From NCBI GenBank assembly GCA_039649045.1, contig JBBWZL010000010.1:17811-81810 (forward strand): a DNA stretch of 64,000 nucleotides, given 5' to 3'. Below the pieces are notes generated by a model. The model had not been told where the DNA came from, did no database searches, and saw only the letters and a list, made by a program, of their open reading frames with translations. Source of the stretch: Verrucomicrobiota bacterium. Its GTDB lineage: Bacteria; Verrucomicrobiota; Verrucomicrobiia; Chthoniobacterales; UBA10450. Made by a program: the position numbers and the translations under genes. This document shows positions 4,916-55,100 of this stretch, piece after piece; within the stretch, counting starts at the first letter, position 1; each line of letters starts with the position of its first letter.

Positions 4916-4917
4916 GT

Positions 4918-12155: not shown

Positions 12156-12160
12156 CCCGG

Positions 12161-21172: not shown

Positions 21173-21286
21173 GGCTTTAATCGCGTATGTGAATACTACG
21201 TTTAGCGAAGGCAGAAACGCAGTGTGCAGAGAGTTTCGGGATCGGAGCTATACCGCTTCGAAGCCACCTTGTTCTCACTAAGCAAT

Positions 21287-26894: not shown

Positions 26895-27110
26895 AATGGA
26901 GCCGGCGGGAGCCGAGCGACATAGACGAAGCCCGCAGGGTGAGCGAGCGGGAGCGAGCGAATCAATGGAGCGAGCGGGACGAGCGACATAGACGGTCAGC
27001 GCGAGCGTAGCGGAGAGCGAAGCGGGAGCTTCGCGAATCAATGGAGCCGGCGGGAGCCGAGCGACATAGACGAAGCCCGAAGGGTGAGCGAGCGGGAGCG
27101 AGCGAATCAA
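26895..27110. repeat. three tandem ~70-76-bp units upstream of icd
   Basis: Units at 26895-26964, 26965-27040 and 27041-27108. Units 1 and 3 differ by about one base. All share ATGGAGC...GAGCGACATAGACG...GCGAATCA. The block is flanked on both sides by GTAGAAA heptamers in direct orientation. Confidence 0.85.
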
Positions 27111-33501: not shown

Positions 33502-36500
33502 TCAGCTTTTTAGCGTTTCAGTTTTTCTGTTGAAGCGCTTGCGCGACATGAACCCGATCGCCGCCAGCGCGAGAGCGCCGCCGATCCAGGTGCTCGGCTC
33601 GGGGATGGCGGTGAGAGTCAATGAGATATCATTGCCGGGCGTGAGGTCGCCGGTATCGACGTAGTTAATGGCGAAAACATAACCGTTGTCGGCGGTCACA
33701 GTGGCACCTTGCGCAAATGTGCCAGTGTTGGTTGTAAGGCTGCTGTTTTCGAGAACGAAAAACTTATCCAAAAGCTGAAGACTATTCGACGCCGTGACGA
33801 CGATGTTGGCACCGGTCAGAACAATCGCGCCGGAGGAGATGACTTGATCGTACCCAGTGCCGGCGGTAGTGCCATTAAGATCGACCGCGAAGTTCGATGC
33901 GGCGACGAGCGTCAACGCTCCGGTATGCAATATTGCGGTTGTACCGCTGCCATTGCCTGACGTGCCAGGCGATAGTTTTGCATCTGGGTTTATGGCAACC
34001 TGCCCGGTAATACCGCCGACACCTGTAGTTGTTCCCCCAGATAATATCGTCCCGGCGTTTGAAACAACGACCGAGCTCGTGCCCGTGCCAGACCCTGTCG
34101 TGTTAACCACGAGTAAGGTACCGCCGGTGACGCTGGTGCCGCCCGAATAAATATTTGCGCCACTGAGTGTCCAAGTTCCCGCTCCGGTCTTGTTGACTGT
34201 AGTGACGTTCGTTGAAGTGCCGTTGGCAATGACGTCGCTTTCGGAACCCGTGGTTGATCCGGTAAGAGTTAGCGTGGTCGTTCCGGAGGTACCAGCGCTA
34301 GTGACACCACCGCTGAGGGAAAATGTCGTCGCACCTGAGGCGTCGAGGCTGCCTGCGCCGCCAGTCGCGCCGGTGAGATTGATCACGCGATCGCTACTGC
34401 CCGCAGTGCTACCCGTATATTGCAGGGTTCCAGCCAGATCAATGATGCTGTTCGCCCCGACTGCCGGTTCGCCCAACGAATTAGGCGTGGTGCTGCCAGC
34501 GTTCTGAATCGAATTGATCGACAGAGTGCCAGCAGTAATAGTTGTTTTCCCAGTGTAGGTATTCGCGCCGGAAAGGACCATCGTGCCAGAGGACTGCTTG
34601 CTAATGCCGCTGGAACCTGAGCCATCTTGGATGATCGAGCCTATCGTCAGCTCAGTTGTCGTGGCGGTGGAGTCGCCGATGCTAAACGTGCGCGTTCCAT
34701 TCAAACTGACTGCCCCGGCGCCTGAAATTGTTGCGCTGTTCGGATTGTTAGTCTGGGAATACGTGACCGTGCCGCCGAGGTTCAGCGTGCCGCCGCCAAG
34801 GGTTATGTTGGGAGTTGTAGCGGAGCCACCCCCGAGCGTGATGTTCCCAACCGTTTGTGTAGTACCGTTTAGATCAAGCGTTCCGCCGCGGAGGATTAGG
34901 ACATTAGAGGTGGAGCCGAGGGTTCCAGCACCTGAAAGCCGCAGCGTGCCAGCGTCTGCAGACGTAGAGCCAATCGTGGTGCCAGCGGCATTACCGGAGT
35001 AGCTGTTGGCAGCTGTAAGAAGAACAGTACCGGTACTCAGGTCGATAAACCCCCCTGTCGTGCCGCTACCGTTGCTGATGATTCCGCCGAACGTCGTATC
35101 GCCCGTGCCGGCGATCGTCAAAGTTCGCGCGGTCGAGCTACTCGACAGGTTGAATGCCCCGAGCGTGAACACCTTACCCGCCCCAATGTTGTTCGTTATT
35201 TGATTCGAATTCGTCTGCGTCCACGTGCCGCCCAACGTCAGGTTTTGGGAACCGTTGATCGTCGCGTCTGTCGTTATCGCCACAGCGTTATTCAAAGTGT
35301 GACTCGCGCCGACGGCCTGCACCGCGATCCCCGTTCCGGTGTTGGTAAGCGTAAATGTGCCGGTGCCTAGCGGTCCATTGGTAATGGCGCCAGTTGAATC
35401 GGCACCGAGGGCAACCGTTCCGGAGTTGAGCGTAAAACCGCCACCAAATGTACTCGCTCCGGAAAGCGTCAAGGTTCCGGTGCCGGCGTAGGTGAGCTTG
35501 CTGGCAGTAGCGGTGCTGCCATTCGAAACTATTCCAGTAATAGTGACGTTGCCCGTGCCGTTAAATATACCGGTGCGGCTGGTGGCGGTGTTAGCGAGAG
35601 CGTAGCTTCCTAAGGAAAAAGTGTTCCCGGCGCCGTTAACCGTAGTCGTTTGTGTGCCACCGACAGTGTTAGTCATGAGGCCACCCAACGTCAATGTGCT
35701 GCCGACTCCATTAAGAGTGATCGTTCGACTACCAGCATTAGTTATTGCACCAGTTCCTAAATTCAGATCCTTTGTTCCCCCAAAGGTGAAATTGCCGCCT
35801 AATGTAATTGCGTTGTTGGTTGTGAGCGTAATCGCGCCCGCCGTTGTGTTGTCGATCGTTGTGCCAACGTTGATCGTGAACGCACCGGTACCTATCGCAG
35901 ACGTATTATTAATGTTTAATGTGCCGCCCGAAAGCGTCGTGCCGCCGCTGTAGGAGTTTCCTCCGGCAAGTGTTATCGTTCCAGCGCCTGGCAGATTCAA
36001 CGTGATACCGGAACCGGATATTCCGCCATTTATGATAAGTGTGCCACTAGCGCCCTGATTAAAAGTGGAAATGCCGCCACTAACCGGGGCAAGAATTATG
36101 GAAGCGTCGATTGTGTTTGTGCCAGTGCTGACGGAAGCGATGGCAGCCGAGTCTGAGTTAGTGAGTCCAGTAGTTGTTGTAGCTTGATTCGCAGTCAGCG
36201 TAAACGTCGCAGCGCCGGTGCTTGTGATATCGTATCCAGAAGAGGCCGCCGACGAGAAATAGAGAGCTGCGATGTTAACGGAGGCGCTTAAATTTGGCTG
36301 CGTTACAGCCGCACTTGTGAACCACCCTACGTCTCCGACACCCGGCGCCAGACCGCCGGTGCCGGCGGACCAATTCGCATTCGTGTTGAAGTCGGTTCCC
36401 GTGTTACCCCAATCCCTTCGGGCATCGACAGGTGTTGCCGAGGGCATCGGAATGGGCGTCGGCGATCTTTTTGACCCAGTGACTGTAGCCGACGGCGACG

Positions 36501-36717
36501 CGCTGGCGGAGGGTGAGGGCTTGGCGGTGGGTGTCGGCGAAGGCTTCGGCGCGCTCAGCGCGGACGAGGCGACGAGGAAAGTAGAAAGTAGGAAGTAGGA
36601 AGTAGGAAGTAGAACGGAGCGAACCAAGAGGGAAGAAAACGCCGAACGCCCAAGGCCCAACGTCCAACGTCCAATGACAAAAGCAGAGGTGAGAGATGTG
36701 GGAATTACGCGAATCAT
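33502..36717 (-). CDS. PEP-CTERM-anchored PATR-repeat protein
   Basis: PATR units throughout. C-terminus IPEPSTWIGGALALAAIGFMSRKRFNRKTETLKS. The N-terminal ~45 codons are encoded by heptamer word arrays and the start codon is uncertain. Confidence 0.8.
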   Translation of the reverse strand: MIRVIPTSLTSAFVIGRWTLGLGRSAFSSLLVRSVLLPTSYFLLSTFLVASSALSAPKPSPTPTAKPSPSASASPSATVTGSKRSPTPIPMPSATPVDARRDWGNTGTDFNTNANWSAGTGGLAPGVGDVGWFTSAAVTQPNLSASVNIAALYFSSAASSGYDITSTGAATFTLTANQATTTTGLTNSDSAAIASVSTGTNTIDASIILAPVSGGISTFNQGASGTLIINGGISGSGITLNLPGAGTITLAGGNSYSGGTTLSGGTLNINNTSAIGTGAFTINVGTTIDNTTAGAITLTTNNAITLGGNFTFGGTKDLNLGTGAITNAGSRTITLNGVGSTLTLGGLMTNTVGGTQTTTVNGAGNTFSLGSYALANTATSRTGIFNGTGNVTITGIVSNGSTATASKLTYAGTGTLTLSGASTFGGGFTLNSGTVALGADSTGAITNGPLGTGTFTLTNTGTGIAVQAVGASHTLNNAVAITTDATINGSQNLTLGGTWTQTNSNQITNNIGAGKVFTLGAFNLSSSSTARTLTIAGTGDTTFGGIISNGSGTTGGFIDLSTGTVLLTAANSYSGNAAGTTIGSTSADAGTLRLSGAGTLGSTSNVLILRGGTLDLNGTTQTVGNITLGGGSATTPNITLGGGTLNLGGTVTYSQTNNPNSATISGAGAVSLNGTRTFSIGDSTATTTELTIGSIIQDGSGSSGISKQSSGTMVLSGANTYTGKTTITAGTLSINSIQNAGSTTPNSLGEPAVGANSIIDLAGTLQYTGSTAGSSDRVINLTGATGGAGSLDASGATTFSLSGGVTSAGTSGTTTLTLTGSTTGSESDVIANGTSTNVTTVNKTGAGTWTLSGANIYSGGTSVTGGTLLVVNTTGSGTGTSSVVVSNAGTILSGGTTTGVGGITGQVAINPDAKLSPGTSGNGSGTTAILHTGALTLVAASNFAVDLNGTTAGTGYDQVISSGAIVLTGANIVVTASNSLQLLDKFFVLENSSLTTNTGTFAQGATVTADNGYVFAINYVDTGDLTPGNDISLTLTAIPEPSTWIGGALALAAIGFMSRKRFNRKTETLKS
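36581..36677. repeat. two heptamer word arrays (GTAGGAA x5 at 36581-36615; CCAACGT-type x5 at 36643-36677) inside the 5' end of 33502..36717
   Basis: Direct reading of the sequence. On the sense strand they encode ..IGRWTLGLGRSAF..VLLPTSYFLLSTF.. Confidence 0.85.
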
Positions 36718-38964: not shown

Positions 38965-40518
38965 CTAACTCCTACTTTTCAACCGACGCTTCCGTTGTCG
39001 GCTGAAGGCCATCGCGCCGAGCGCGAGTGCGCCGCCGATCCAGGTGGCGGGCTCTGGGATCGGGACCAGCCGGATATCGTGGTCGTGGTAAACCAGCGTA
39101 TAGTTGGGATAGCTGCTGCTGTTATCGACTGCGAACATCGTGCCGAAGCGGTCGTCGAATGTTGCCAGGGTATAAGTCGTAATCCCGTCGGCCAGGCCTT
39201 GAATGGAAAGGGTAGTCTGGGATCCCAGGGTGAGATCGCCGAGTATTTTGAGCAGGTCGCTCGTGCTGCCGCTCAGGTTCGCGAGGTAAGTGCCCCCCGC
39301 GCCTTCGTTGGTCGCCATGATCAGATTTTGGTTCAACGTAAGGGTGCCGACGGTGGTGGCGGTGGCGCCGGTTATTGTCTGGCCGAACATGTAAACCGTG
39401 CCGCCGATGGTGCCGGTGCCGCCAAGAAGCGAGCCACTGCCGGAGAGCTGCACGATACCGGTGGCCCCGGAGTTATCGCCATTCACCAGGAGCGTCCCTC
39501 CCTGCACGTAGGTCCCGCCGTTGTAAGTGTTCGTGCCGGTAAGATTGACGAGGCCGCTGCTCACTTGGACGCTCAGCTGGCTGGTCGTGCCGGTGGTGAT
39601 GTTGCCGCTTACATTAACGGTGCCGCCGGTGAACGAAAGAGTCTGGAAATTTCCGGTCGGTGCGCTCGAGCTGATGTTGGCGCTAATCGTCAGTGGGTTT
39701 GTCAGGGAAGAGTTACTGACGTTGAGATCGCCCTTGAGCGACAGTGGCACCGAGATCGTGTCGCCGGCGCTGTTGGAAGTCTGGTGGAGCGTCGCGGCGT
39801 TCACACCGTTGTCGAAGGTGAGGCTGGTCCCGGCGCCGGGCGCGATCGTGTAACTGTGGCTTCCATTTGTGTCGCCGACGTTCAATTGTCCGACGGTGCG
39901 CGAGACGTCGAGCGTGACCGTCCGGTTTGCCGTCAAATTAACCGTGCCGAAATCTGCGGTCGTGGTAGCCCCATCGGGGACGTTGCTGCTCAGCCAATTC
40001 GCCGCATCGCTCCAATTGCCCGAAGCATCGACATTCCATGTGCCGGTGCCAGTCGTGATGATGGTGTTCGGCGTGATTGTGCTCGCGCTGCTGACGGGGC
40101 GCGTGCTAGCCGCCACTAACGTGACGCTGGCTGGCGCACTAAAGCCGCCGAAGTTATCGCTGCGCTGATTTTGATTTATCGGATCGAACTCAGTAATTCT
40201 TCCGCCGAAATGCGATCGACTTTCGTCGGCTGACGCACTGAGCATCCAACCGCGCGCGGACGGCGAGAAGAGAAGCCCGTTGACGAGCCGGCCCATCGAG
40301 AGCTGCGCCCGCGGATGAATTTCCTGCGGAGCGGGCAGGGCCACGTCGACGGCGCGTGAATCGTTCAATGGCGCGGTCGAGAACCAGGAGCCGGGATAGG
40401 CAAAGTCGAGGTCGAAGGTATTGATCCAGGTATTGTCGGCGGCGAGAATACCGCCGGCGCAAGCGACGAGGAGCAGGCAACGAATGGGACGCCAAATGCC
40501 CTGTGCTGCGGGTTTCAT
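38965..40518 (-). CDS. PEP-CTERM-anchored PATR-repeat protein (paralog 1)
   Basis: Start MKPAAQGIWRPIRCLLLVACAGG. C-terminus IPEPATWIGGALALGAMAFSRQRKRRLKSRS. Confidence 0.8.
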   Translation of the reverse strand: MKPAAQGIWRPIRCLLLVACAGGILAADNTWINTFDLDFAYPGSWFSTAPLNDSRAVDVALPAPQEIHPRAQLSMGRLVNGLLFSPSARGWMLSASADESRSHFGGRITEFDPINQNQRSDNFGGFSAPASVTLVAASTRPVSSASTITPNTIITTGTGTWNVDASGNWSDAANWLSSNVPDGATTTADFGTVNLTANRTVTLDVSRTVGQLNVGDTNGSHSYTIAPGAGTSLTFDNGVNAATLHQTSNSAGDTISVPLSLKGDLNVSNSSLTNPLTISANISSSAPTGNFQTLSFTGGTVNVSGNITTGTTSQLSVQVSSGLVNLTGTNTYNGGTYVQGGTLLVNGDNSGATGIVQLSGSGSLLGGTGTIGGTVYMFGQTITGATATTVGTLTLNQNLIMATNEGAGGTYLANLSGSTSDLLKILGDLTLGSQTTLSIQGLADGITTYTLATFDDRFGTMFAVDNSSSYPNYTLVYHDHDIRLVPIPEPATWIGGALALGAMAFSRQRKRRLKSRS

Positions 40519-40591
40519 CGGGAGCCGATTGAAAGCGATTTGCCTACGCGGAGTCAACAGAAATAATGCTCAGTATGGAGGGTATGCGGGA

Positions 40592-41738: not shown

Positions 41739-43274
41739 CTACGTCTTTATTCGCAGCCGGCGTCGCGACGCGAACGCGATCGCGCCGAGCGCGAGTGCGC
41801 CGCCGATCCAGGTCGCTGGCTCGGGGATCGCAGTCGGAACGAGGAGCAGATCATTGTCGCCGTACACGAGCGTGTAATTCGCGGGCATGTTATCGACGGA
41901 ACTGAACTGTCCGCTCCGGCCGAGATACGTGGCGAGGGTGTAGACCGTGAACCCATCCGGCGTCCCGACGAGGTCGAGATGGCTCGAGCCGGAGATGTTG
42001 AGGGTTCCCATGATCGCGAGAGTGTCGCTGATGTTGCCGATAATATTAGCCAGGTAAGTGGAGGTGGATTCGCCGCCGTTGAAGGTAACATTCTGGTTCA
42101 GGGTGAGTGTGCCGATGTGCAGCGTGCCTGTACCGGTCGCGGTGCCGCCGGTGATAATGCCATTTCCGACGGCGACCGAGCCGCCAATGGTGCCGGTGCC
42201 GCCGAGGGTGCCGGAATTAACCACGGACACGCTTCCGGTGGCGCCGGAGTTATTGCCGTTGATCAGGCCGGTGGCGCCGTTCAAAACTGTCGTGGCGCCG
42301 GTGTAGGTGTTCGTGCCGCTAAGAGTCACCACGCCGCTGGCGATGCCGACCCGCAGGGAATTGCCGGTGGTGCCGTTGCTGAGGACGCCGGTCACGTTGA
42401 CGACGCCGCCGTCGAATTGGATGAGCTTGTCGAATCCGCCGGCGCTGATGTTTCCGGAAAGGGTGAAGGCCCGGGTCGTGGAGTCGTTTCGAACCGAAAG
42501 ATAGTTCACGTTTCCAATGATGATCGGCGCCGAAACGGTGTCGCCAAAAGTGGCTACGGCTTGATTCAAGAGGCCGGTGCCCCCGCCGTTGTCAAAAGTG
42601 AGCGTGCTGCCGCCGCTGGCCGCGAGGGTATACGAGTTGCCGCGGAGTGGGTCGCCGATAAAGAGCTGGCCGACCGTGCGGCTCGTGTCCAGCGTAACGG
42701 TGACCGCGCCGGAAAAAAGAGGGTGGCTGTCCAGGTGGGCGATCGAGCCTGCGCCATCCGGAATAGCGAAGCCGGCCCAGTTTCCGAAGTTGCCCCAGTT
42801 TCCCGAGAAGTCGCTACTCCAAAAACCAATGGCAGCCGCCGGGGCGTCTGGAAGCAGCGAGGAGCTTGAGCCTGGGCTGCTGAGGAACGCGGGCGAACCA
42901 AACGCGCTCGGCCCATAAGGAGCGCTCGAGTCAGTTACAGCGGGCGCTGTCTGCTCCGTCATCCAGGCGGACGTGATCTCAGGCTGGGCGGGCGTCAGCG
43001 TCCAAGTGCGAGAGGGTCGCGAGAAGAGGAGACCATTTACGAGATGGCCCATCGAGAGCTGCGCTCGTGCGTTAGTTTCCAGCGGAGCGGGCGGGGCCAC
43101 GTCGGCGGTGTGGGCGTCGTTCAACGGCAGAGCGGAGAACCAAGAGCCCGGATAGGCAAAGTCGAGGTCGAAGGTATTGCTCCAGGTATTGTCGGCGGCG
43201 AGAATACCCCCGGCACAGGCGACGAGGAGCAGGCAACGAATGGGACGCCAAATGCCCTGTGCTGCGGGTTTCAT
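41739..43274 (-). CDS. PEP-CTERM-anchored PATR-repeat protein (paralog 2)
   Basis: The first 31 aa are identical to 38965..40518 and the N-terminal ~85-90 aa are about 80% identical overall. C-terminus IPEPATWIGGALALGAIAFASRRRLRIKT. Confidence 0.8.
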   Translation of the reverse strand: MKPAAQGIWRPIRCLLLVACAGGILAADNTWSNTFDLDFAYPGSWFSALPLNDAHTADVAPPAPLETNARAQLSMGHLVNGLLFSRPSRTWTLTPAQPEITSAWMTEQTAPAVTDSSAPYGPSAFGSPAFLSSPGSSSSLLPDAPAAAIGFWSSDFSGNWGNFGNWAGFAIPDGAGSIAHLDSHPLFSGAVTVTLDTSRTVGQLFIGDPLRGNSYTLAASGGSTLTFDNGGGTGLLNQAVATFGDTVSAPIIIGNVNYLSVRNDSTTRAFTLSGNISAGGFDKLIQFDGGVVNVTGVLSNGTTGNSLRVGIASGVVTLSGTNTYTGATTVLNGATGLINGNNSGATGSVSVVNSGTLGGTGTIGGSVAVGNGIITGGTATGTGTLHIGTLTLNQNVTFNGGESTSTYLANIIGNISDTLAIMGTLNISGSSHLDLVGTPDGFTVYTLATYLGRSGQFSSVDNMPANYTLVYGDNDLLLVPTAIPEPATWIGGALALGAIAFASRRRLRIKT

Positions 43275-43399
43275 CGTGAGCCGATTGAAATCAATTTGCC
43301 CACGCAGAGTCAATAGGAATCATGGGGAAAGTAGAAATTAGGAAGGAGGAGTTTCAGAGGTCCCGCCTTCGCAAAAGCTACGGCGTGGCGAGCACGGTC

Positions 43400-43435: not shown

Positions 43436-45250
43436 TCAGCGGATGTTTTCGACAAGCGCGGCCTCCTCCGGCAAAAGCCGCTTCCGGTCGACCTCGCGCA
43501 TCTCCGTGGCTGCATCCTCGCTCCGCCCGTTCGCGGCCAGGACCGCGGCATGCACCGCCAGGGCAGACGGCGTCAACGCGCCGCGGGCGACCTGAATACC
43601 CGAATACGCATCCATTGCGTCGCTCAATTTTCCCAGGCGAAACCGCGCCAGAGCGAGCAGAGTCCGATGCGGCAGACTGGACGGCTCTCGCTGGACGAGC
43701 TGAGCAGCAAGTTGCTCAAGCGTTATCAGTTCTTGGTTATTTGTTACTCGTTCTGACCTCTGACTTCCGTCCTCCGACCTCTGCGATTGCTGCGCATTCA
43801 TGAGCAGCAATCGCGTATACGCTTCGTCGTTTTGCACCGCCGGGTCGTTAGGCCAGATCGCCAGCATCTCCGCGAGGACGGCATGGATTTTCTTGGTCTC
43901 GCCCGTGACCTGCGCGAGCCGCAGCCGGCCCTGGTGCGCCGCGCGCAGCCGGGGCGACTCGGCCACGGCCTCGTCGTAGGCAGCGCGCGCCACATCGGTC
44001 ACGCCATTTTTTTCCGCATAACCTGCGAGCGTAATCAGCTTGCCCGGATCGCCCCGGGCTGCCTCCAGCGCGCGCTGCCAATTATTTTCCGACGCGGCTT
44101 TTTCGCCGAGCTGTGCGTTGCAGCGCGCGAGATACATTTTCTGCACGAACGGATCGAGCGGGTAACGATCGCGATCGAGCAATTCCTTGATCTCTTTCCA
44201 GCGGCCGAGACCGCCGAGCGCATCGACGTATTGCAGGAAAAGCTCGCGCGATTGCAGCGCTCTCTCGATCGGGATGGCATCGAGCACGCGCTGGAATTCA
44301 CTCTTGCCATTCAACCACGTCGCGAGCGCCGCCGCTTCATCCGGTGTTCCATCTTTCCATTGCGCGACCGCTTTCGCGATCAGCTCGGCGCGCGTTTCAG
44401 GTTGCTGGCGCATCTTCAAATCGACCGCGAGCAATTTCTGCGGCGCGCGGGCGAGGGGATGCGCCTCGAGCTTTTCCGACAAATCGAGCGGCGCGATCGG
44501 GAAAGTTTCCGGGATTTTTTCCGATGAAAGCGCTGTCTGCGCCAGGACCGTGAGCGCATCGACCCCGGCGGCATCGCCCGTTTCCGATATTTTCTTCAAC
44601 CAGGACCAGGCTTCGCTGCGCCAGTTTTCGTTGCCCGCGGAAATCGCGATGTCCAGCAGCGCGGCCTGTAGTTTTCCCCGGCCGCTCGCCCGCGCATCGC
44701 CGAAAATTTTTTGCAACGCATCGTGCGCTTCGATAGCGGCGCCCTGCCGGGCGGAGAGTTGCGCCGAGAGCAAATAGTCCAACGGCATAACGGGGCCGTT
44801 CGTTCCACTGAGGAGCGCGCGGATCGCGCGGGTCGCGCGGGCATCGTCGCCCGCGAGTAGCGCGATGGTCGCCTCATCGGTGAGATCAACGCGGGTGAGA
44901 CGGGTGCGTTGCTCTAGCCGGTCCCAGAATTCCAGCGCCTGCGCCTGCCGGGTTCGCGAAAGAAAACGGGCGATGGCCCGAATCGCTTCCGGTTCGTCCG
45001 GCCACAATTGATAAGCGCTCGCCACTTCCTTGCGGGCTTCGTTCCAATCCTCTTTCTCCATCAGCGCAAAGGCCGTGCGAGCGTGGCGTCGCGCCTGCCA
45101 GGCCTTGATACCATGCAGGACAGGCCGCCCGCCGAAGATTCCGCCGAGCCCGAGAACGAGGACGAGGAGGAGCGCGACGATAATGCGTTTGCGCCTGCGA
45201 GTTCGAAGCCGCAGCTCCTCCTCGGTCAACATGAAGTCGTCGGCGCGCAT
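43436..45250 (-). CDS. membrane-anchored TPR-like repeat protein (possible exosortase-system accessory)
   Basis: N-terminal TM helix (IIVALLLVLVLGLGGIFGG), then a helical-repeat composition. Last gene of the exosortase operon. Contains an in-frame heptamer array (43753-43787) encoding SQRSEDGSQRSE. Confidence 0.65.
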   Translation of the reverse strand: MRADDFMLTEEELRLRTRRRKRIIVALLLVLVLGLGGIFGGRPVLHGIKAWQARRHARTAFALMEKEDWNEARKEVASAYQLWPDEPEAIRAIARFLSRTRQAQALEFWDRLEQRTRLTRVDLTDEATIALLAGDDARATRAIRALLSGTNGPVMPLDYLLSAQLSARQGAAIEAHDALQKIFGDARASGRGKLQAALLDIAISAGNENWRSEAWSWLKKISETGDAAGVDALTVLAQTALSSEKIPETFPIAPLDLSEKLEAHPLARAPQKLLAVDLKMRQQPETRAELIAKAVAQWKDGTPDEAAALATWLNGKSEFQRVLDAIPIERALQSRELFLQYVDALGGLGRWKEIKELLDRDRYPLDPFVQKMYLARCNAQLGEKAASENNWQRALEAARGDPGKLITLAGYAEKNGVTDVARAAYDEAVAESPRLRAAHQGRLRLAQVTGETKKIHAVLAEMLAIWPNDPAVQNDEAYTRLLLMNAQQSQRSEDGSQRSERVTNNQELITLEQLAAQLVQREPSSLPHRTLLALARFRLGKLSDAMDAYSGIQVARGALTPSALAVHAAVLAANGRSEDAATEMREVDRKRLLPEEAALVENIR

Positions 45251-45681
45251 CAGAAGTCAGAAGTCAGAGGTCGGAACTGCGGAATGATTCGTTCTTCCGT
45301 ATCATTCCGCCGAGCATTCGTCCGATCTCAGCGCCACGCGAAGTAAGTTGCTTATGTTGATCGTGCGAGATGTAACCGCACGCCAGGGCAAAATCGAGGG
45401 ATGAATCCGTTTCGCTGTTTTCAACGTCACAATCCGTCAGCTTGCTTAGAAAATGCGCTTCATAAGGTCGTTTGGCCCACGCTTCTCGGAGATTCAAACA
45501 GACAGATCTCGAGGATCGCCTGATTTGACTGGTCAAAGCGTATTTTTCTTCTGACGGAAAAGTTTTTGTGGCGTCAAAAATCTCCATCGCGAGCTGATAC
45601 GCGGATTTGTAAACCTCCAGATCCTTAGCCGTTTCAATCTTCACGCTTTCTGACCTCCGCTTTCTGACCTCCGACCTCCGG
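45250..45681 (-). mobile_element. IVS-like cassette: four-helix-bundle gene bracketed by inverted heptamer arms (45250-45277 and 45647-45681)
   Basis: The arms are 21/28 complementary. On the sense (minus-strand) RNA, 3 of the mismatches become G:U pairs. The cassette lies exactly between the exosortase and TPR ORFs. Calling it a mobile element is inference. Confidence 0.35.
45264..45644 (-). CDS. four-helix-bundle protein (23S rRNA intervening-sequence protein / Avd family, TIGR02436-like)
   Basis: KDLEVYKSAYQLAMEIFDATKTFPSEEKYALTSQIRRSSRSVCLNLREAW..FL..CDVENSET matches the family pattern. Trimmed to GTG 45644, which overlaps the exosortase stop by 11 nt. Its TGA stop lies inside the heptamer arm. 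Confidence 0.75.
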   Translation of the reverse strand: MKIETAKDLEVYKSAYQLAMEIFDATKTFPSEEKYALTSQIRRSSRSVCLNLREAWAKRPYEAHFLSKLTDCDVENSETDSSLDFALACGYISHDQHKQLTSRGAEIGRMLGGMIRKNESFRSSDL

Positions 45682-47376
45682 TTCAACCGTTTCCCTGAGG
45701 AGTTCTGCGAATTTGTCTTCGGCCATTTGATCGTCCATCGGTTGCGAGCTGACAAAAATCACTTCCAGAACTTGCTGCCCCAGATTCCGAATTCCATTTC
45801 GCACCGTCCGGAAACGCGCCTTCATGGACCAATCGGGCTGCACGCCTTCGGCGAGCTGTAGATCTGGCCGCGGCTCATCGGCGTGCGTCTTGTCTTCCTG
45901 CAAACAAAAAAACGTGTGCGCGACAGCGTTCCCGTTGCCCTGCCGAAAGGTGATGTGCCGCGCCACGATCGGAATATTCTCGCGCGCGAGATAAGTTTTT
46001 GCGCCGCGATCGGCGAGTTGCTGCCAGCCGATGCTCGGCAGGCAAATGTCCGGCCGGTGGGCCCGCGCCCGCAGCACGCTCGCGCTGCCTGGATTCCAGC
46101 GAAAGAAAAACAGATAATTGGTCGTCGAAAAACCGGGTGCGGCGTCTGCAATCGTTCTCCAAGTCACTTCGCGGCCCAAATCGAACCGCAATGTTTGCCG
46201 GACCGATTCATCGATTTTGATTTCGCGAAATCCCGGCGCCTTTTCCGGCGGACGAACACTCCAATTGCCGCGCGCAGTGAGATTCTTCTCATGCGCCCGA
46301 TACCACTCATGGGCTCCAGCTTCGACCGCAACGAGCCAGAGAAGGCAAAGGATGAAGGATGAAGGATGAAGGAGGAAGTGGGGCCGGAGGTCGGAGGTCG
46401 GCTCTGACTTCTGACTTCTGCCCTCTGCCCTCCGACCTCCGTTTCCGCCTTCCGCCTTCCGCCTTCCGCCTTTCTCCAACAACGCGGCGAGCAAGAGCGA
46501 GCCGCAGAAAACAGCCGCAACAATCGTGTATCCGGCAAAATCGTGCCATCGATCCACGGCCGAGATGCTTTGGGTCGCGGCGATCCAGACGAGGAAAAAG
46601 GCGCGCGCAAAGTTGGCGATGATGGCGATGGCCAGCGCGCCCAGAACAAGAAGAATTCGGCGCGTAACCGACAGCCGCTTCAGTTCGCCGAAGAGCAAGC
46701 CAATCATGATCGAAGTCTGCAATGAACGCACGCCGCTGCACGCTTCGTTCACGCCGACCAGGCCAGTGCTGACGCGGATGAGATTGCCTTCGAGTTGCGC
46801 GGGAATGCCGAAAAGGGTGATCGTCTCACTCGCCACCGCCGCGACGATCCGCATAAGGCCCTGGACGATTGGTTGCTCAATCGGAGAAACCCACGGCACC
46901 GCGACGAAAAAAAACGCGACGGGAAAAGCGAAATGCCGCACCCACGGTTTGCCGCCCGCCAACCAAAGCACGAGCAAAGTCATCGTCACCACCACGCCTG
47001 TGTGCACCCAACCCAGCGGCCGCCAATCCGGGTTCGCGATTTCAAACAACCGGATCGGCAACAGGAGCAGCAGCGCCCCAATTGCAATCGCGATCGCAAT
47101 TCCGCGTTTCCTCCTTCCTCCTTCCTCCTTCCTACTTTCCCCCCGATCGTCCCAGCGCAACCAAAACAAAAACAGCGCGAAGAACGGAACGAACCATCCG
47201 TAGCTGTATTGCTCGTTGTCCGACCACTCGCCGCTCAGTTGCCGGCAGAGAACAAACCAGAGCGCGAGCAATAACAGGCCCGACAGCAGAATCCTCGAAA
47301 GTTTGCTTCGGCGCACCGACTCTGGTTTCAACCGAATCGAAATGGCGTCGTTCACGGCGGGGCGAAGATATTCCAC
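45634..47376 (-). CDS. exosortase (PEP-CTERM type) fused to a C-terminal EpsI-like domain
   Basis: Multi-TM N-terminal half with NEACSGVRSL (catalytic Cys), ANFARA (Asn/Arg) and WHDFAGY (His) motifs. The C-terminal ~230 aa are EpsI-like. Three word-array segments are in frame (47110-47137, 46349-46474, 45647-45681). Confidence 0.85.
   Translation of the reverse strand: MEYLRPAVNDAISIRLKPESVRRSKLSRILLSGLLLLALWFVLCRQLSGEWSDNEQYSYGWFVPFFALFLFWLRWDDRGESRKEEGGRRKRGIAIAIAIGALLLLLPIRLFEIANPDWRPLGWVHTGVVVTMTLLVLWLAGGKPWVRHFAFPVAFFFVAVPWVSPIEQPIVQGLMRIVAAVASETITLFGIPAQLEGNLIRVSTGLVGVNEACSGVRSLQTSIMIGLLFGELKRLSVTRRILLVLGALAIAIIANFARAFFLVWIAATQSISAVDRWHDFAGYTIVAAVFCGSLLLAALLEKGGRRKAEGGNGGRRAEGRSQKSEPTSDLRPHFLLHPSSFILCLLWLVAVEAGAHEWYRAHEKNLTARGNWSVRPPEKAPGFREIKIDESVRQTLRFDLGREVTWRTIADAAPGFSTTNYLFFFRWNPGSASVLRARAHRPDICLPSIGWQQLADRGAKTYLARENIPIVARHITFRQGNGNAVAHTFFCLQEDKTHADEPRPDLQLAEGVQPDWSMKARFRTVRNGIRNLGQQVLEVIFVSSQPMDDQMAEDKFAELLRETVEPEVGGQKAEVRKRED
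46349..46474. repeat. 18 phase-locked heptamers (126 bp) forming an imperfect hairpin inside the exosortase ORF
   Basis: Units in order: AGGATGA x3, AGGAGGA, AGTGGGG, CCGGAGG, TCGGAGG, TCGGCTC, TGACTTC x2, TGCCCTC x2, CGACCTC, CGTTTCC, GCCTTCC x3, GCCTTTC. The core CGGAGGTCGGAGG and CCTCCGACCTCCG are perfectly complementary. Confidence 0.9.
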
Positions 47377-48496: not shown

Positions 48497-49270
48497 ATGT
48501 CATCCGGAGTTGCGGCGGGTTCGTCCGAAAGATTTCAGCAGATCCTCGGCATCCGCTTCTTCGATGGCACTCCGGCGGGGGCGGTCGCTTATCTCAAGCG
48601 CGTTGGCGGATACGTGGTTGTGCCCGCGGCGCCAGCGCTGGTGAAACTGCGTTACGATGAAGCTTTTCGCGCGGCGCTTGTGCAATCCGATCTCGCAATT
48701 GCCGACAGCGGATTGATGGTCTTACTCTGGAAACTTTTTGAACGCCGGCGCATTTCCCGCATCTCCGGGCTCGCTTACTTGAAGCGCCTTCTGGAGCTGC
48801 GGGAAATCCACGAGGCTGGAAAAGCCTTTTGGATTCTTCCCGCGGCATCCGCCGCCGAGAGCGCAAAGAAATGGCTCCGCGATGCGGGATTCGGCGTGTC
48901 GGACGAAGACTTTTACATCGCGCCTTTTTACGGAGCGGAGGTGAGCGACGAAGTTCTGGCTGCGGCCATCAATGCCCGGCGGCCCACCGACGTCATCATT
49001 GCCATTGGCGGCGGGCCGCAGGAAAAACTGGGATTATTCCTCCGAGACCATCTCGGATATCGCCCGGCCATCCATTGCATCGGGGCCGCGCTCGGTTTTC
49101 TGACGGGCGACCAGATCGCGATCCCGGATTGGGCCGACCGGCTTTACCTCGGCTGGCTCTTTCGCCTTTTCGCGCAACCGCGCGTGTTCATCCCGCGGCT
49201 CTGGAGTGCGCACGAGCTCCCATGGCTTATTTTCAAGTATCGTGAAAAACTGCCCCCCCTGAAAAACTGA
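48497..49270 (+). CDS. WecG/TagA/CpsF-family (GT26) glycosyltransferase
   Basis: ILGIRFFDGT..AVAYL...GGYVVVPAAPALV.. and ..VIIAIGGGPQEKL patterns. ATG 48497 preferred over TTG 48476. The stop codon lies inside the octamer array. Confidence 0.65.
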   Translation: MSSGVAAGSSERFQQILGIRFFDGTPAGAVAYLKRVGGYVVVPAAPALVKLRYDEAFRAALVQSDLAIADSGLMVLLWKLFERRRISRISGLAYLKRLLELREIHEAGKAFWILPAASAAESAKKWLRDAGFGVSDEDFYIAPFYGAEVSDEVLAAAINARRPTDVIIAIGGGPQEKLGLFLRDHLGYRPAIHCIGAALGFLTGDQIAIPDWADRLYLGWLFRLFAQPRVFIPRLWSAHELPWLIFKYREKLPPLKN

Positions 49271-49692
49271 AAAACTGAAATGCTGAAAGACTAAAAAATG
49301 CGCCTCCCAGAAGCGTTTCGAGAACGAACGAAAAAATATGCTTCAGCGATCATTCGGTTGTATGCGCAATTGCCGAGGACCCGGAAGGAAGTGGAAGTGT
49401 TGGGACATCAACTTCTTCGGTCTGGTACCTCAGTCGCAGCGCTCACCCGCGAAGCATCACGAGCTCGATCTGATGCTGAGTTCTGTTCCAAGATCGACGG
49501 AGCATTGCAGGAAGCGGATGAATCTCAGCTATGGATTGAACTTCTGCGGGAGGACTGCGGCATCGACGGCGCGCCTATCGAACACCTGCATCGGGAAACA
49601 AGCGAACTAATTGCGATCCTGGTAACAATGGCAAACAAGACAAAGCGCACTCTTAGATAATTTCAGCTTTTCAGTATTTTCGCGTTTCAGCC
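49259..49692 (+). mobile_element. IVS-like cassette: four-helix-bundle gene bracketed by inverted octamer arms (49259-49297 and 49661-49692)
   Basis: Left arm (CTGAAAAA x2, CTGAAATG, CTGAAAGA, CTAAAAAA). Right arm (TTTCAGCT, TTTCAGTA, TTTTCGCG, TTTCAGCC). 24/30 complementary. Sits exactly between the GT26 and carbamoyltransferase ORFs. Mobility is inference. Confidence 0.35.
49298..49660 (+). CDS. four-helix-bundle protein (23S rRNA intervening-sequence protein / Avd family)
   Basis: FRERTKKYASAIIRLYAQLP....VLGHQLLRSGTSVAALTREASRARSDAEFCSKI..ALQEADESQLWIELL matches the second common subtype of this family. Confidence 0.75.
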   Translation: MRLPEAFRERTKKYASAIIRLYAQLPRTRKEVEVLGHQLLRSGTSVAALTREASRARSDAEFCSKIDGALQEADESQLWIELLREDCGIDGAPIEHLHRETSELIAILVTMANKTKRTLR

Positions 49693-49699
49693 TTTGCCC

Positions 49700-51490
49700 A
49701 TGCTCATCCTCGGCCTCAATGCTTATCACGGCGATTCCGCGGCGTGTTTAATCAAGGATGGCCGGCTTGTCGCCGCGGCGGAGGAGGAGCGGTTTCGGCG
49801 CATCAAACATTGGGCCGGCCTGCCCACTCAGGCGATCGATTATTGCCTGCGCGAAGGCGGCGTCACGCTGCAGGACGTCGATCACATCGCGATCAATCGG
49901 AAACCTGGCGTGAACAACTGGCGGCGGCTTGCCTTTGTCCTGCGGCATCGGCCCGATCCGCGGTTGATGATGCAGAAAGTCCGCAACATTCGCAGCGCTT
50001 CATCGGTGCAGGAAGCTCTCGAGCGCGCCTACAAGGTGTCGTTAGGCGCCCAGGTCCATCACATCGAACATCATCTCGCGCATCTCGCCTCCGCCTTTCT
50101 CGTCTCGCGCTTCGACGAAGCGGCCTGCATTTCGATCGATGGCTTTGGCGACTTTGCCAGCACGGCGATGGGGAGCGGCCAGGGGAACCGGATCGCGATC
50201 GAGGAGCGCGTTTATTTTCCGCACTCGTTAGGCATCTTTTATTCGGCCCTGACCCAGTTCATCGGCTTCCCGCACTTTGGCGACGAATACAAAGTGATGG
50301 GCCTGGCGCCGCTGGGCGAACCGAAATATCTCCAGGAAATGCGCCAGCTCGTTCGGATCCAGCCGGACGGCACCTTCAAGTTGAATCTCAAATATTTCCG
50401 GCATCACACCGATAACGTTTCCTACACTTGGAACGACTGCGCCCCGGAAGTCGGCACGCTTTACACCGGGAAATTGAGCGAGCTGCTCGGATCCGAACGC
50501 GGCGAAGGCGATCCTCTCGAACAACGACACAAGGACCTGGCTCGCTCGGCCCAGGCGATGTATGAGAAAGCGTTTTTCGGTCTGCTGAACGCGCTTCATA
50601 AAAAACATCCTTCGCCGAACCTCGCGCTCGCGGGCGGGTGCGCGATGAACTCGGTCGCGAATGGCAAAGTCTATTTGCGCACCCCGTTCCGAAAAATGTA
50701 TCTGCCCGCTGCCGCGGGCGACGCCGGCGGCGCCATCGGCGCAGCGGCGGTTGTGCAAGCACAACTCGCGGAGGTCAGACGTCAGAAGTCAGAGGTCAGC
50801 CAGAGGCGCATCGCCTTGGACGATGCTTATAGCGGTCCGCAGTTCTCCGACGAGGAAATCCATCAACTGCTGCGAGATCGCGGCGTTGTCTCATCTGACC
50901 TCCGATCTCCGACCTCCGACCTCTCGGTCGAACACATGACCGATAGCAACGAACTTTGTCGCCGCACCGCAGCCGCCATCGCAGATGGCAAAGTCGTCGG
51001 TTGGTTTCAAGGACGGATGGAGTGGGGGCCTCGCGCTCTCGGGAACCGCTCGATCCTGTGCGATCCGCGGCGTTGGGACATGAAGGAAATTCTGAATCTC
51101 AAGATCAAGCGCCGCGAATCGTTCCGTCCGTTCGCGCCTTCGATTTTGCGCGAAGCTGTCGCCGAATGGTTCGAGCAGGACGATGACGTGCCCTTCATGA
51201 TGGAAGTCTTCCAAGTTCGCCCGATAAAACGCGCTTTCATTCCGGCGGTCACGCACGTCGATGGCTCCGGCCGGCTCCAAACCGTGCATCGCGAAACCAA
51301 TCCGCTTTATCACCATCTGATCTCCGACTTCTATTCGCTGACCTCGGTCCCGATGGTGTTGAACACCTCCTTCAACGAAAACGAACCGGTCGTTTGCCGC
51401 CCCGAAGAAGCGCTCGATTGTTTTCTGCGCACGAAAATGGATCTGCTCGTCATGGGCAATTTCCTGATCACCCGTTCGAACGCTCTCTAA
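49700..51490 (+). CDS. carbamoyltransferase (NodU/CmcH family)
   Basis: MLILGLNAYHGDSAACL.., EERFRRIKH, GWFQGRMEWGPRALGNRSIL.DPR, VTHVDGSGRLQTV. ATG 49700 preferred over TTG 49694. Two in-frame heptamer arrays at 50768-50802 and 50891-50925. Confidence 0.85.
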   Translation: MLILGLNAYHGDSAACLIKDGRLVAAAEEERFRRIKHWAGLPTQAIDYCLREGGVTLQDVDHIAINRKPGVNNWRRLAFVLRHRPDPRLMMQKVRNIRSASSVQEALERAYKVSLGAQVHHIEHHLAHLASAFLVSRFDEAACISIDGFGDFASTAMGSGQGNRIAIEERVYFPHSLGIFYSALTQFIGFPHFGDEYKVMGLAPLGEPKYLQEMRQLVRIQPDGTFKLNLKYFRHHTDNVSYTWNDCAPEVGTLYTGKLSELLGSERGEGDPLEQRHKDLARSAQAMYEKAFFGLLNALHKKHPSPNLALAGGCAMNSVANGKVYLRTPFRKMYLPAAAGDAGGAIGAAAVVQAQLAEVRRQKSEVSQRRIALDDAYSGPQFSDEEIHQLLRDRGVVSSDLRSPTSDLSVEHMTDSNELCRRTAAAIADGKVVGWFQGRMEWGPRALGNRSILCDPRRWDMKEILNLKIKRRESFRPFAPSILREAVAEWFEQDDDVPFMMEVFQVRPIKRAFIPAVTHVDGSGRLQTVHRETNPLYHHLISDFYSLTSVPMVLNTSFNENEPVVCRPEEALDCFLRTKMDLLVMGNFLITRSNAL

Positions 51491-52158: not shown

Positions 52159-55100
52159 TGTGCGGTATCGCAGCCATTTTTGGATACGGCGTTGATGCTC
52201 CACCGGTCGATCGTGATGAGCTGATCGCCATTCGCGATCGGATGATTCGCCGCGGGCCCGATGGCGAAGGCCTCTGGATCTCGGAGGATCGCCGCGTAGG
52301 CCTGGCCCATCGACGCCTCACGATCGTAGATCTCACGGACGCGGGCCTGCAACCGATGTGGACCAGCGATCGCGCGCTCTGCGTTTCGTTCAACGGCGAA
52401 ATCTACAACTATCCTGCGCTACGCGCGCAATTATCCGAGCGTGGTTATCAGTTCAGATCGAATTGCGACACCGAAGTATTACTCCATCTCTATGCCGAGA
52501 AGGGGCCTGAGATGGTCCACGATCTTCGCGGGATGTATGCCTTCGCCATCTGGGACGTAAAGCAGCGGAGCCTGTTTTGCGCGCGCGACCCCTTCGGGAT
52601 CAAGCCGCTTTACTATGCGGACGACGTCCGAACGATTCGCATCGCCTCACAGGTCACGGCTCTCCGGGCAGGAGGGCACATCGATACGACGCCTGAGCCT
52701 GCCGGGCACGTTGGATTTTTTCTCTGGGGCTCGGTGCCGGATCCGTTCACCCTTTATCGCGGGATCAGCGCACTGCCCGCAGGCCACACGCTCACAATCC
52801 GCGAAGGGGGCACACCCGAGATTCGTTCGTATTGTTTTATCCCGGATATCTTGCGTGAAGCAGAATTAGAGATCGGAGATCAGAAGTCAGAAGTCGGTGG
52901 GGAACAACGCGAAATTCTTCACGCCGCGTTGCGCGACAGCGCCGAGCATCATCTTATGGCCGATGTGCCGGTGGGCATTTTCCTTTCCGCCGGACTCGAT
53001 TCATCCACGCTCACCGCGCTGATCAGCGAACGGCATGAGGACGTCCGCACGGTCACACTCGGCTTCAACGAATACCGCGGCGGCGAACAGGACGAGACGC
53101 TGCTGGCGGAAGTGGTCGCGCGCACTTGCAAAACCAATCACCAAACCATCTGGGTCACGCGCCGTGATTTTGAAGGAGACGCCGCCCGGCTCTTCGAGGC
53201 AATGGACCGGCCGACGATCGATGGCGTGAACACCTATTTCGTCAGCCTCGCGACCAGGCGGGCCGGACTGAAAGTGGCGATCTCCGGCCTGGGCGGCGAC
53301 GAATTATTCGGCGGTTACCCCAGTTTCCAGGATGTTCCTCGCATCGCCAACCGACTCCGCCATTTCCGCCGATTCGGAAAACTTGCGCGCGGCTTTCGCA
53401 TCGTAACGCAGGATGTGATCAAACATTTCGCTTCGCCGAAGTACGCCGGAATTTTCGAATACGGCTCGAGTTATCCCGGCGCCTATTTGTTGCGCCGCAG
53501 TCTTTTCATGCCGTGGGAACTCCCCGAATTTCTCGACCCGGAATTGGTGCGCGAAGGCTGGGCGCGCTTGAACACTTTCGGCGAGTTGGCGGGGATTTGC
53601 GATTCGCTCGATTCCGAGCGGCTCAAAGTCTCGGCGCTCGAACTTTGCTGGTATATGCGCCACCAGCTTTTGCGCGATTCCGATTGGGCCGGCATGGCCC
53701 ATTCGCTCGAAATCCGCGTGCCGCTCGTCGATGTGAAGCTGCTGCGGGAAATTGCGCCCTTGCTCGCTTCGCCGCGCCCGCCTGGAAAACGCGACATGGC
53801 GTTGTCTCCCCGCACGCCATTGCCCGAAGCGGTCCTCTCTCGTCCAAAGACCGGTTTCACCATGCCGGTGCGCGACTGGCTTTTGCAATCGTTCGATCCC
53901 CTGTCGGCCGGCGAACGTGGTCTGCGCGGTTGGGCGCGTTACGTCCATGGTGAATTCGTGCAGGACTCCGGCGCGGCCTCTACGGTCTTGCGCCGCTCGC
54001 GCGCCACGCGCGCTCGTGCCACTGGCGCGCGCAAAATTTCACGGATCCTTGTTTATCGCATCGGCCAGCTCGGCGACACCATCGTGGCGTTGCCCGCCAT
54101 GTGGGCGATAAAGGAAAATTTTCCTGACGCGGAGCTGACGCTGCTTTGCGATCAACATCCGCACACCAACTACATTCTCGCTTCCGGCCTGCTGCGAGAC
54201 GCCGGAATATTTCACGATTTCCTGGCGTATCCGGTGGAGAAACTTGGCACCAGCTCTGCGCGCCGCGCGACTGAGCTCGTGAAAAAATTGCGCGAACGGA
54301 ATTTTGATACCCTCGTCTATCTGGCCCCATCGGCTCGAGGGCCGGGGCGCGTCCGGCGCGATCGCTGGTTTTTCCGCGCGGCCGGCATCCGCACTTTTAT
54401 TGGGATGACCGGTTTCCCGCGGTTTCAGAAAAGGACCAGCGGCGCCGCGCTCGCCAGCGCCCCGCGCGAATTCGAATTATTGCTCCTGCGTCTGCGTGAA
54501 TCCGGGTTGCGTGTCTCTTTGCAAAATCCACGCTTCGACCTCGGGCTCGGCCAGCGCGAAGAAACAGACATAGCGCGCTGGCTCGAGACGCAACCTCAAC
54601 CCGACGGCCATCGTCGCTGGATTGCGGTAGGCCCGGGATCCAAAATGCCGGCGAAGCAATGGCCCCTCGAACGTTACGACCAGGTCGTGCGCGATCTGAT
54701 TGCCGGCTTCGACATCTGGCCCGTCGTTTTCGGCGGGGAAGAGGACCGCGAGATTGGCGATGGATTGATTGAGCGCTGGGGTCGCGGCTATAACGCCGCC
54801 GGCGCGCTCGGTGTTCGCGCCGCTGGCGTCGCCTTAAAACGTTGCGAGCTTTACCTCGGCAACGACACCGGCACGATGCACCTCGCTGCCGCCGCCGGCA
54901 TCCGGTGCGTTGCCGTCTTCTCGTCACGCGAGCGTCCCGGTCTGTGGTATCCTGCCGGAAGTGACAACCGCGTTTTCCGTTCCGAGATCGACTGCGAAGG
55001 ATGCGGCCTGAAGGTGTGCATCACTCGAAACATCGAATGCCTTCGCCGGATTGATTCACAATCGGTCACGGCTGCGTGCACCGAGCTGCTGGCTGGTTCG

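Follow-up and report, generated by a model that had tools for sequence, protein, structure and literature searches.

An in-frame heptamer word hairpin joins the exosortase and EpsI-like halves of a Chthoniobacterales protein and is probably tolerated repeat DNA

How does a hairpin made of seven-nucleotide repeats come to lie in frame in the middle of a gene for a protein-sorting enzyme, and is it a switch, an inserted element, or part of the protein? The question is raised by a 64,000-nt stretch of DNA from a Verrucomicrobiota bacterium (Chthoniobacterales, UBA10450; GenBank assembly GCA_039649045.1, contig JBBWZL010000010.1, positions 17,811 to 81,810), which is called the window here. A gene on its minus strand encodes a fused exosortase/EpsI-like protein, and an array of heptamers at positions 46349-46474 lies between the two halves. 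The array belongs to a class of heptamer and octamer word quasi-palindromes that pervades Chthoniobacterales genomes. It is probably, though with considerable room for doubt, a tolerated and now structurally integrated word hairpin, nested, in frame, and free of cargo. The exosortase hairpin is most likely tolerated repeat DNA from which the protein now gains a cytoplasmic loop and one half of a transmembrane helix, and not a regulatory switch.

The first-pass annotation of the window described 18 heptamers in constant phase. The words are as it gave them: AGGATGA (three times), AGGAGGA, AGTGGGG, CCGGAGG, and TCGGAGG on one side, and CGACCTC, CGTTTCC, GCCTTCC (three times), and GCCTTTC on the other. 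Tandem Repeats Finder resolves positions 46348-46472 into four abutting period-7 arrays. The period-7 self-match of the 126-mer is 0.765, the maximum over all 126-bp segments of the 64 kb (their mean is 0.249, sd 0.05); compared with 20,000 shuffles, the best of which scored 0.437, z is 12.7. At least six different words make up the mosaic of the array, and its longest tract of a single word is about 4.3 copies. As the annotation had claimed, there is a perfect 13-bp core, CGGAGGTCGGAGG / CCTCCGACCTCCG at 46385-46397 / 46429-46441, with arms 31 nt apart, and the halves are imperfect complements outside it: the outer (GGCGGAA)n and (TTCATCC)n words pair at five of the seven positions in each unit. 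The outer stem is imperfect because the exact complement of the arm that codes for the membrane segment, (GGATGAA)n, contains TGA and is unusable on the sense strand. All three sense frames run open through the array, and each of the three antisense frames has stops. Since a heptamer array shifts through the three frames every 21 nt, a word that is free of stops in every phase stays open in every frame. The sense-strand RNA of the array folds at -68.8 kcal/mol (z = -3.06, dinucleotide shuffles), and the 120-nt core of the linker gives a fold z of -5.6 with mononucleotide shuffles. No Rfam family matches the array, two tRNAs being the sole matches in the window at gathering score. Permissive matches at the array are to sub-threshold models of eukaryotic miRNA precursors, which reflect the long hairpin shape alone. 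A scan for terminators and promoters gave no signal at the array.

What does the array encode? The translation quoted in the annotation agrees with the open reading frame (ORF) on the minus strand, in which the array codes for aa 301-342 (EKGGRRKAEGGNGGRRAEGRSQKSEPTSDLRPHFLLHPSSFI). The domain assignment stood for the N-terminal half, where Exosortase_EpsH (PF09721) is clear in Pfam (E = 1.1e-49) and TIGR02602 reaches 131 bits (cut-off 105.6). The C-terminal half is matched to EpsI/DUF3485 (PF11984) only weakly, at 16-19 bits (E = 0.0013-0.01) and under the Pfam cut-off of 26.1 bits, though 24 of the 41 orthologues match this family at E <= 0.01 (best 1.4e-6). A fold search of the PDB with the AlphaFold2 model gave nothing at E <= 0.001, and the weak Eag/SciW-like C-terminal-domain matches are not interpretable. 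Two nearby ORFs, 38965..40557(-) and 41739..43313(-), carry PEP-CTERM motifs (PF07589) at their C-termini. The names borne by homologues of the protein point to Verrucomicrobiota, order Chthoniobacterales.

The annotation was right that the array encodes a charged loop and part of a hydrophobic segment. It covers the loop between predicted transmembrane helices 8 and 9 (TM8 and TM9) and the first part of TM9, which spans aa 332-354 in a Kyte-Doolittle scan. The purine arm encodes a K/R/E/G-rich, net-positive cytoplasmic loop of low model confidence. The pyrimidine arm encodes F, L, I, H, P, and S residues, and its HFLLHPSSFIL forms the N-terminal half of the predicted TM9. In the AlphaFold2 model aa 303-337 are coil (predicted local distance difference test score, pLDDT, below 50 at aa 309-335) and aa 338-363 are helix. 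The orthologue loops carry +3.0 of net charge on average, and 91% of them are net positive. When the 42 codons are deleted in silico, transmembrane prediction with and without the segment indicates that TM8 and TM9 merge into a single hydrophobic stretch. Because the deletion fuses the two helices and the arm supplies the start of TM9, the array is not a dispensable insertion. On the preferred reading TM9 would anchor a periplasmic EpsI-like domain, with the array filling a hypervariable cytoplasmic loop between exosortase TM8 and TM9. The proposal that the domain junction is built from a word hairpin is borne out: the array spans from the last exosortase helix to the helix predicted to anchor the EpsI-like domain, and its words are those of the intergenic hairpins elsewhere in the window.

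Is the hairpin peculiar to this genome? Among 83 related loci that were fetched, 68 have both flanking motifs (WHDxAGY and WYRxHE) and were used for linker statistics, with two same-length segments of each gene as controls. The distance between the motifs is 70-136 aa across these loci (87 aa in the window). Period-7 self-match above the array threshold of 0.45 is found in 59% of the linkers but in 0% and 0% of the controls, and a fold below the threshold of z < -2.5 in 38% of the linkers but in 3% and 0% of the controls. Along the sense strand, purines are commoner in the first linker half than in the second at 67 of the 68 loci, and the halves of one linker complement each other better than they do the halves of other loci (p = 5.5e-5). 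Near-perfect coding hairpins of 35-49 bp (-40 to -64 kcal/mol) are found in L001, L004, L009, L015, and L028. The RNAalifold consensus of 13 linkers has 19 pairs, seven of them with compensatory changes. Because periodicity, folding, purine-first order, and compensatory changes occur among orthologues with differing words, what is conserved at the linker is the word hairpin as such and no particular sequence. The post-TM1 loop of the orthologues is also hypervariable and word-coded.

The annotation had also raised the possibility that the 42 codons are a discrete insertion. No linker among the 68 orthologues is word-free, so no empty site exists, and most carry arrays of their own. A recent clean insertion of 126 bp is rejected on the absence of an empty site, together with the fusion of TM8 and TM9 upon deletion. 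In L068 the linker (4877-5161) holds a GC-rich palindrome of 285 nt, in frame, with 94 pairs and -165 kcal/mol, and in L037 (4820-4930) a GC-rich palindrome replaces the heptamer words. The exosortase linker site accepts several unrelated palindrome classes.

The outer arms are of two types. Type A, (GGAAGTA)n / (TACTTCC)n, codes for KVESRKxEVGN ... FLLPTSYFLL, and type B, (GGCGGAA)n / (TTCATCC)n, for GGRRKAEGG ... FILHPSSFIL. The linker of the window is type B, while its closest relatives (84-86% identity) have type A, and type B is scattered across the neighbour-joining tree. Four type-B lineages share the outer arms at the DNA level and differ in the interior: L081 has a 15-nt loop and lacks the inner hairpin; in the window, GGTCGGA-type words form a perfect hairpin inside; and the added words are purine words alone in L083 and pyrimidine words alone in L002. 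The shared arms and differing interiors imply that the array of the window is a nested structure. Two relatives, P0008 and P0010, differ by 14 aa, which corresponds to six heptamers of SDLRPPT-coding words. Since relatives differ by multiples of three units, unit-number change does occur and only in-frame outcomes survive. The frame across the linker is uninterrupted in 82 of the 83 loci and frameshifted in none. In L026 (4775-5200) an in-frame stop, TQTP*AASRWHD, lies in the exosortase domain outside the array, and both halves keep the same frame; the stop is unrelated to the array and could mark a pseudogene, a sequencing error, or recoding. A scan of metagenome contigs for the exact flanks 112-140 nt apart, aimed at strain-level length variants, gave 0 matches, the best protein relative being just 84% identical.

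How would such arrays be made and kept? They may arise and turn over by slippage of 7 nt, by copying from arm to arm of a hairpin, by ectopic conversion from other genomic copies, or by a combination of these. Selection would filter solely for an open frame, a positive loop, and a hydrophobic start of the helix, and a purine-first hairpin would fulfil all of these demands automatically. Such a hairpin suits a loop followed by a helix because complementary codons specify residues of opposite hydropathy. That purine-first hairpins satisfy the demands of frame, loop, and helix points to tolerated, integrated repeat DNA and away from a programmed switch. Some observations weigh against this reading. 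Many orthologue stems are near-perfect and have compensatory differences between lineages; stems that were purely neutral junk should have decayed, which leaves very rapid turnover or selection on pairing. The imperfect outer arms GGCGGAA/TTCATCC are identical at the DNA level in four lineages, none of which are mutually closest relatives, and simple local slippage is insufficient to explain this. No transposase, reverse transcriptase, or transposase associated with repetitive extragenic palindromes (REP) is found by Pfam among the approximately 30 ORFs of the window that were scanned.

Words of the same families surround genes for small four-helix-bundle (4HB) proteins of the PF05635 family. 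There are two such genes in the window, both with a purine-rich array upstream and a complementary pyrimidine-rich array downstream (Table 1). The second was found by inspecting the DNA between complementary arrays, and a single-sequence phmmer search for further 4HB genes in the window returned the query itself as the sole match. Conservation of the two proteins far exceeds that of the exosortase. The first shares 91% identity with its copy in L015, where the exosortases are 59% identical, and 81% with that in L081; for the second, the matches listed in a protein search are more than 100 homologues, close relatives only, of 76-90% identity. In 743 kb of related DNA there are 40 PF05635 genes after artefactual matches are excluded. 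An iterated 4HB hidden Markov model also drew C-terminal fragments of carbamoyltransferases, and the statistics leave out these matches (the long ORFs, L016|1301 and L020|2). The mean purine content is 0.64 upstream and 0.37 downstream of the 40 genes. The two flanks of a gene complement each other at 17.6, compared with 8.7 for mismatched flanks (p = 5e-16).

When the 4HB proteins are clustered at 55% identity, the clusters match the flank words one to one: GGTCAGA / GGACAGA (cluster 1, 10 members), CTGAAAA / TTTCAGC (cluster 2, 9 members), GAAAGTA / TACTTTC (cluster 3, 9 members), GAAGGAA / TTCATCC-like (cluster 4, 5 members), and GTTATTAG / CCAATAAC (cluster 5, 2 members). Over pairs of genes, the similarity of the flanks correlates with the identity of the proteins (Spearman 0.53, p = 5e-57), and flank similarity averages 28.2 for pairs of at least 55% identity against 13.7 for those below 40% (p = 1e-51). 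The intergenic site 3' of the exosortase gene holds at least four different 4HB clusters across genomes and is empty in L083. The spacer between WecG and the carbamoyltransferase has a 4HB element in the window and a solo (TACTTCC) array without a 4HB gene in L082. The presence of different 4HB subfamilies at the same intergenic site suggests mobile or cassette-like units. The site is empty in L083 (2150-2200) and filled in L081 (7670-8225); when empty, it keeps a short purine array and runs, at a shared GAAGAT, straight into the ATG of the next gene. From this comparison, the 4HB indel consists of the ORF and the pyrimidine arm, about 470 nt.

The linker hairpins, judged by sequence, are best read as cargo-less relatives of these units, which resemble the intervening sequences (IVS) of rRNA. 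A larger proposal can be put forward only tentatively. These would be an undescribed class of IVS-like word-hairpin elements in Chthoniobacterales, with PF05635 genes in the loops of word stems, words specific to each subfamily, subfamilies alternating at intergenic sites, and cargo-less copies seeding in-frame modules of charged loop and hydrophobic helix; the 4HB protein would recognise, maintain, or propagate its cognate arrays at the RNA or DNA level. If this is true, the exosortase linker hairpin is a binding or processing site of the 4HB-word system and no inert filler. The pairing of 4HB subtypes with words also offers a testable handle on a very large family (Avd / 23S-IVS-protein) beyond diversity-generating retroelements (DGRs).

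Table 1. Positions of the exosortase gene, its arrays, and related elements (counted from the first nucleotide of the window)
Feature	Position	Strand	Description
Host gene	45634..47376	-	580-aa fused exosortase (PF09721, aa 34-299) and EpsI-like (PF11984-like) protein; AlphaFold2 mean pLDDT 78
Word array (main finding)	46349..46474	-	18 phased heptamers, in frame; codes for aa 301-342 of the exosortase/EpsI-like protein
Outer purine-rich arm (sense)	46443..46472	-	(GGCGGAA)x4.3, coding for GGRRKAEGG; identical at the DNA level in L002, L081, L083
Outer pyrimidine-rich arm (sense)	46348..46378	-	(CATCCTT)x4.4, coding for LLHPSSFIL, N-terminal part of predicted TM9
Inner nested hairpin	46385..46441	-	13-bp arms of GGTCGGA-type words; 31-nt loop of GCAGAGG and GTCAGAA words
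Second in-frame array of host gene	47108..47137	-	(GGAGGAA)x4.3 on sense strand, about aa 80-90 (SRKEEGGRRKRG); loop after TM1
Purine arm of hairpin of the downstream 4HB gene	45644..45680	-	Read as C-terminal tail of the exosortase (EVGGQKAEVRKRED)
First 4HB gene	45264..45644	-	PF05635 23S_rRNA_IVP, bAvd-like, 126 aa; GTG start overlaps exosortase stop by about 11 nt
Pyrimidine arm (sense) 3' of first 4HB gene	45250..45276	-	(TCAGAAG) units on + strand
Second 4HB element	49259..49695	+	(CTGAAAAA)x5, 4HB gene 49298..49660, (TTTCAGC)x4
Carbamoyltransferase linker hairpin	50774..50923	+	Arms 50774-50799 / 50897-50923, in frame
AsnB-GT9 fusion array	52880..52895	+	In-frame (TCAGAAG), between GATase and Asn_synthase domains of a 1000-aa protein
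TPR/PrsT-like protein array	43752..43783	-	In frame, QRSEDGSQRSE

Could the hairpin be a nucleic-acid element under selection in its own right? It might act as an mRNA stem, like those around rRNA IVS, at which RNase III cuts or to which the neighbouring 4HB protein binds. Or it might be a translational pause that times when TM9 is inserted and the EpsI-like domain exported. In both cases it would modulate expression of the sorting enzyme. The shape of the hairpin, not its sequence, recurs among the orthologues with compensatory changes, and some of their stems are very stable. Hairpins of the same word families bracket the 4HB genes with word-specific complementarity, and the 4HB subfamilies co-vary with the words. 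A 4HB gene flanked by GGTCGGA/GGTCAGA, the words of the inner hairpin, lies about 700 nt downstream on the same strand. Nevertheless, about 60% of the orthologue linkers have no significant fold and 41% no period-7 signal, some lineages hold the unrelated GC-rich palindromes at the linker, and the outer stem in the window itself is degenerate. The lack of an Rfam match and of terminator or promoter signals at the array also speaks against this explanation, the main rival, which we consider unlikely.

The switch proposed in the first-pass annotation, in which a slip of one unit would frameshift the EpsI half, fares worse. As a contingency locus the array would alternate between a fused exosortase-EpsI protein and a truncated exosortase. 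A 7-nt unit is not a multiple of three, a slip would alter only what lies downstream as the sense frames are all open, and changes in unit number are real in relatives, as in the six heptamers of P0008 and P0010. However, the array is a short mosaic, the two halves are in different frames in 0 of 83 independent genomes, and the shifted frames end 14 or about 60 codons past the array without a start for the EpsI half. Like arrays are also found in housekeeping-type enzymes, the carbamoyltransferase and the asparagine synthase fusion, for which a switch would hardly be sensible. The ON/OFF or split/fused switch is not upheld by these results, and a phase-variable (contingency) locus is very improbable. 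Hardly credible is the idea that no repeat phenomenon exists at the level of nucleic acid and that the periodicity merely follows from composition, from an error of assembly, or from selection acting on the protein to keep a low-complexity linker. The encoded loop is indeed charged and of low complexity, and rapid evolution is common in loops of this kind, but the period is 7 nt and not 3 or 21, at the z given above, and the same words are found in non-coding DNA and on both sides of the 4HB genes. The feature recurs in dozens of independently assembled genomes, and an assembly artefact is rejected on this ground.

How does the preferred reading, a tolerated and integrated repeat hairpin, compare with known systems? 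The closest functional analogues would be the Rickettsia palindromic elements (RPEs), along with heptamer repeats such as TAACTGA, and the closest architecture that of 23S rRNA IVS with a PF05635 ORF. IVS stems are excised by RNase III. As in the IVS, a PF05635 gene lies in the loop of a long stem of complementary flanks, and versions without the ORF exist in both. Unlike the IVS, the elements here lie in mRNA-coding and intergenic DNA and in ORFs, with stems made of tandem words; rRNA is absent from the window, its Rfam matches being tRNAs only. With contingency loci of simple sequence repeats (SSR) the array shares a tandem unit inside an ORF that is not a multiple of three, but it differs in its short mosaic tract, in the absence of out-of-frame alleles among the 83 genomes, and in the occurrence of similar arrays in housekeeping-type enzymes. 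The short tandemly repeated repetitive (STRR) sequences of cyanobacteria are comparable short tandem heptamer arrays. The TAACTGA repeats of Beggiatoaceae, Cyanobacteria, and Bacteroidetes are abundant and mostly intergenic, often end just before start codons, and are found in some ORFs, with one indirect repeat only (PMC4679880). What is common to these repeats and those of Chthoniobacterales is the short tandem array of a 7-nt word in 2-6 or more copies. They are, however, direct repeats of essentially one word per genome, whereas here many words form complementary purine-then-pyrimidine hairpins that bracket 4HB genes.

RPEs and other intragenic MITEs (miniature transposable elements with inverted repeats) are dispersed palindromes in frame in unrelated genes, where the fold tolerates the added peptide (PMC10969869; PMC1779305). 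The Chthoniobacterales arrays are likewise multi-copy, dispersed, and in frame in unrelated ORFs. While RPEs are about 150 bp long and fall into few conserved families, the arrays here consist of 7-8-nt words in variable copy number and belong to many word families. In contrast to RPEs and MITEs, the copies share words and no full-length consensus, and not one of the 68 orthologues has a linker free of words. The arms in the carbamoyltransferase flank a native coding block, which a single insertion does not explain. REP sequences and bacterial interspersed mosaic elements (BIME) are defined as extragenic palindromes of 20-40 bp with a conserved GTAG or CGTC head (PMC3733652). They resemble the present arrays as abundant short palindromes at gene boundaries, but the linker element is intragenic, about 126 bp long, and made of tandem words, and has no such head; a REP-associated transposase was not found among the window ORFs scanned. 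No description of the word-hairpin architecture was found in the searchable literature (Chthoniobacter/Udaeobacter repeats, Verrucomicrobia heptamer hairpins, and PF05635/TIGR02436 flanking repeats), the coverage of which is incomplete, so that this is absence of evidence only.

How common are such arrays? The 64 kb hold about 17 sites with word arrays of period 7 or 8, most of them at gene boundaries, and GGTCAGA/GGTCGGA, GGAAGTA/GAAAGTA, CTGAAAA, CTGAAAAA, and CGTTGAAG are recurring words. The 743 kb of related DNA has 213 arrays, about one per 3.5 kb. A downstream complementary partner is present for 49 of the 213, and the first arm is purine-rich in 39 and pyrimidine-rich in 9. Five arrays in the window are within an ORF and in frame: two in the exosortase and one each in the carbamoyltransferase, the AsnB-GT9 fusion, and the TPR protein. 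Those of the carbamoyltransferase and the AsnB-GT9 fusion lie between mapped Pfam domains, the former between Carbam_trans_N (aa 5-351) and Carbam_trans_C (aa 426-594). Chthoniobacterales, an abundant soil order that includes Candidatus Udaeobacter, appear to keep generating stop-free heptamer hairpins, which come to lie in frame inside proteins and in some cases between mapped domains. A purine-first hairpin gives a hydrophilic and then a hydrophobic segment, and would be a ready-made route to loop-plus-helix or signal-peptide-like segments.

In the carbamoyltransferase the arms, GGTCAGA-type and then TCCGACC-type, enclose a conserved native block of 27 aa (LDDAYSGPQFSDEEIHQLLRDRG). The same arrangement is found in L013, L015, and L082 but not in L001, which has none. 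With arms on either side of a conserved coding block, a single insertion is hard to invoke. At 36577-36674 the gene for a repeat-rich surface protein of 1071 aa (33502..36717, minus strand) has (GAAAGTA)x5 and (AACGCCC)x5 at its 5' end. It is plausible that (GAAAGTA)x5, if translated, codes for LLPTSYFLLSTF as the hydrophobic core of a signal peptide. If so, LLPTSYFLLSTF is a further product of a pyrimidine-rich arm that serves as a membrane-inserting segment.

Some of the other repeats are intergenic. A clean octamer hairpin, (CGTTGAAG/CGTTAAAG)x7 followed by its complement, occupies 12035-12156 in the spacer between a GlnD-like gene (9240..12029, minus strand) and a sigma-54 response-regulator gene (12161..13555, minus strand). 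A (TCAGAAG/TCAGAGG) array at 4918-4949 begins 3 nt past a tRNA gene (4843-4915) and extends up to where ORF 4950..6530 starts. At 26895-27110 a 71-nt element (AATGGAGCCGGCGGGAGCCGAGCGACATAGACGAAGCCCG.AGGGTGAGCGAGCGGGAGCGAGCGAATCAA) has two copies that are 99% identical and 145 nt apart, and a further, diverged one lies between them. Its core is also found in L003 (5707-5727) between the exosortase gene and its 4HB gene, and it has no Rfam match. Long tandem repeats with periods of 12, 24, 42, and 84 at 20115-20394 and 24501-24699, in ORFs of about 1400 aa (16958..21172 and 21224..25489), have no relation to the heptamer words and are in-frame protein repeats of an ordinary kind.

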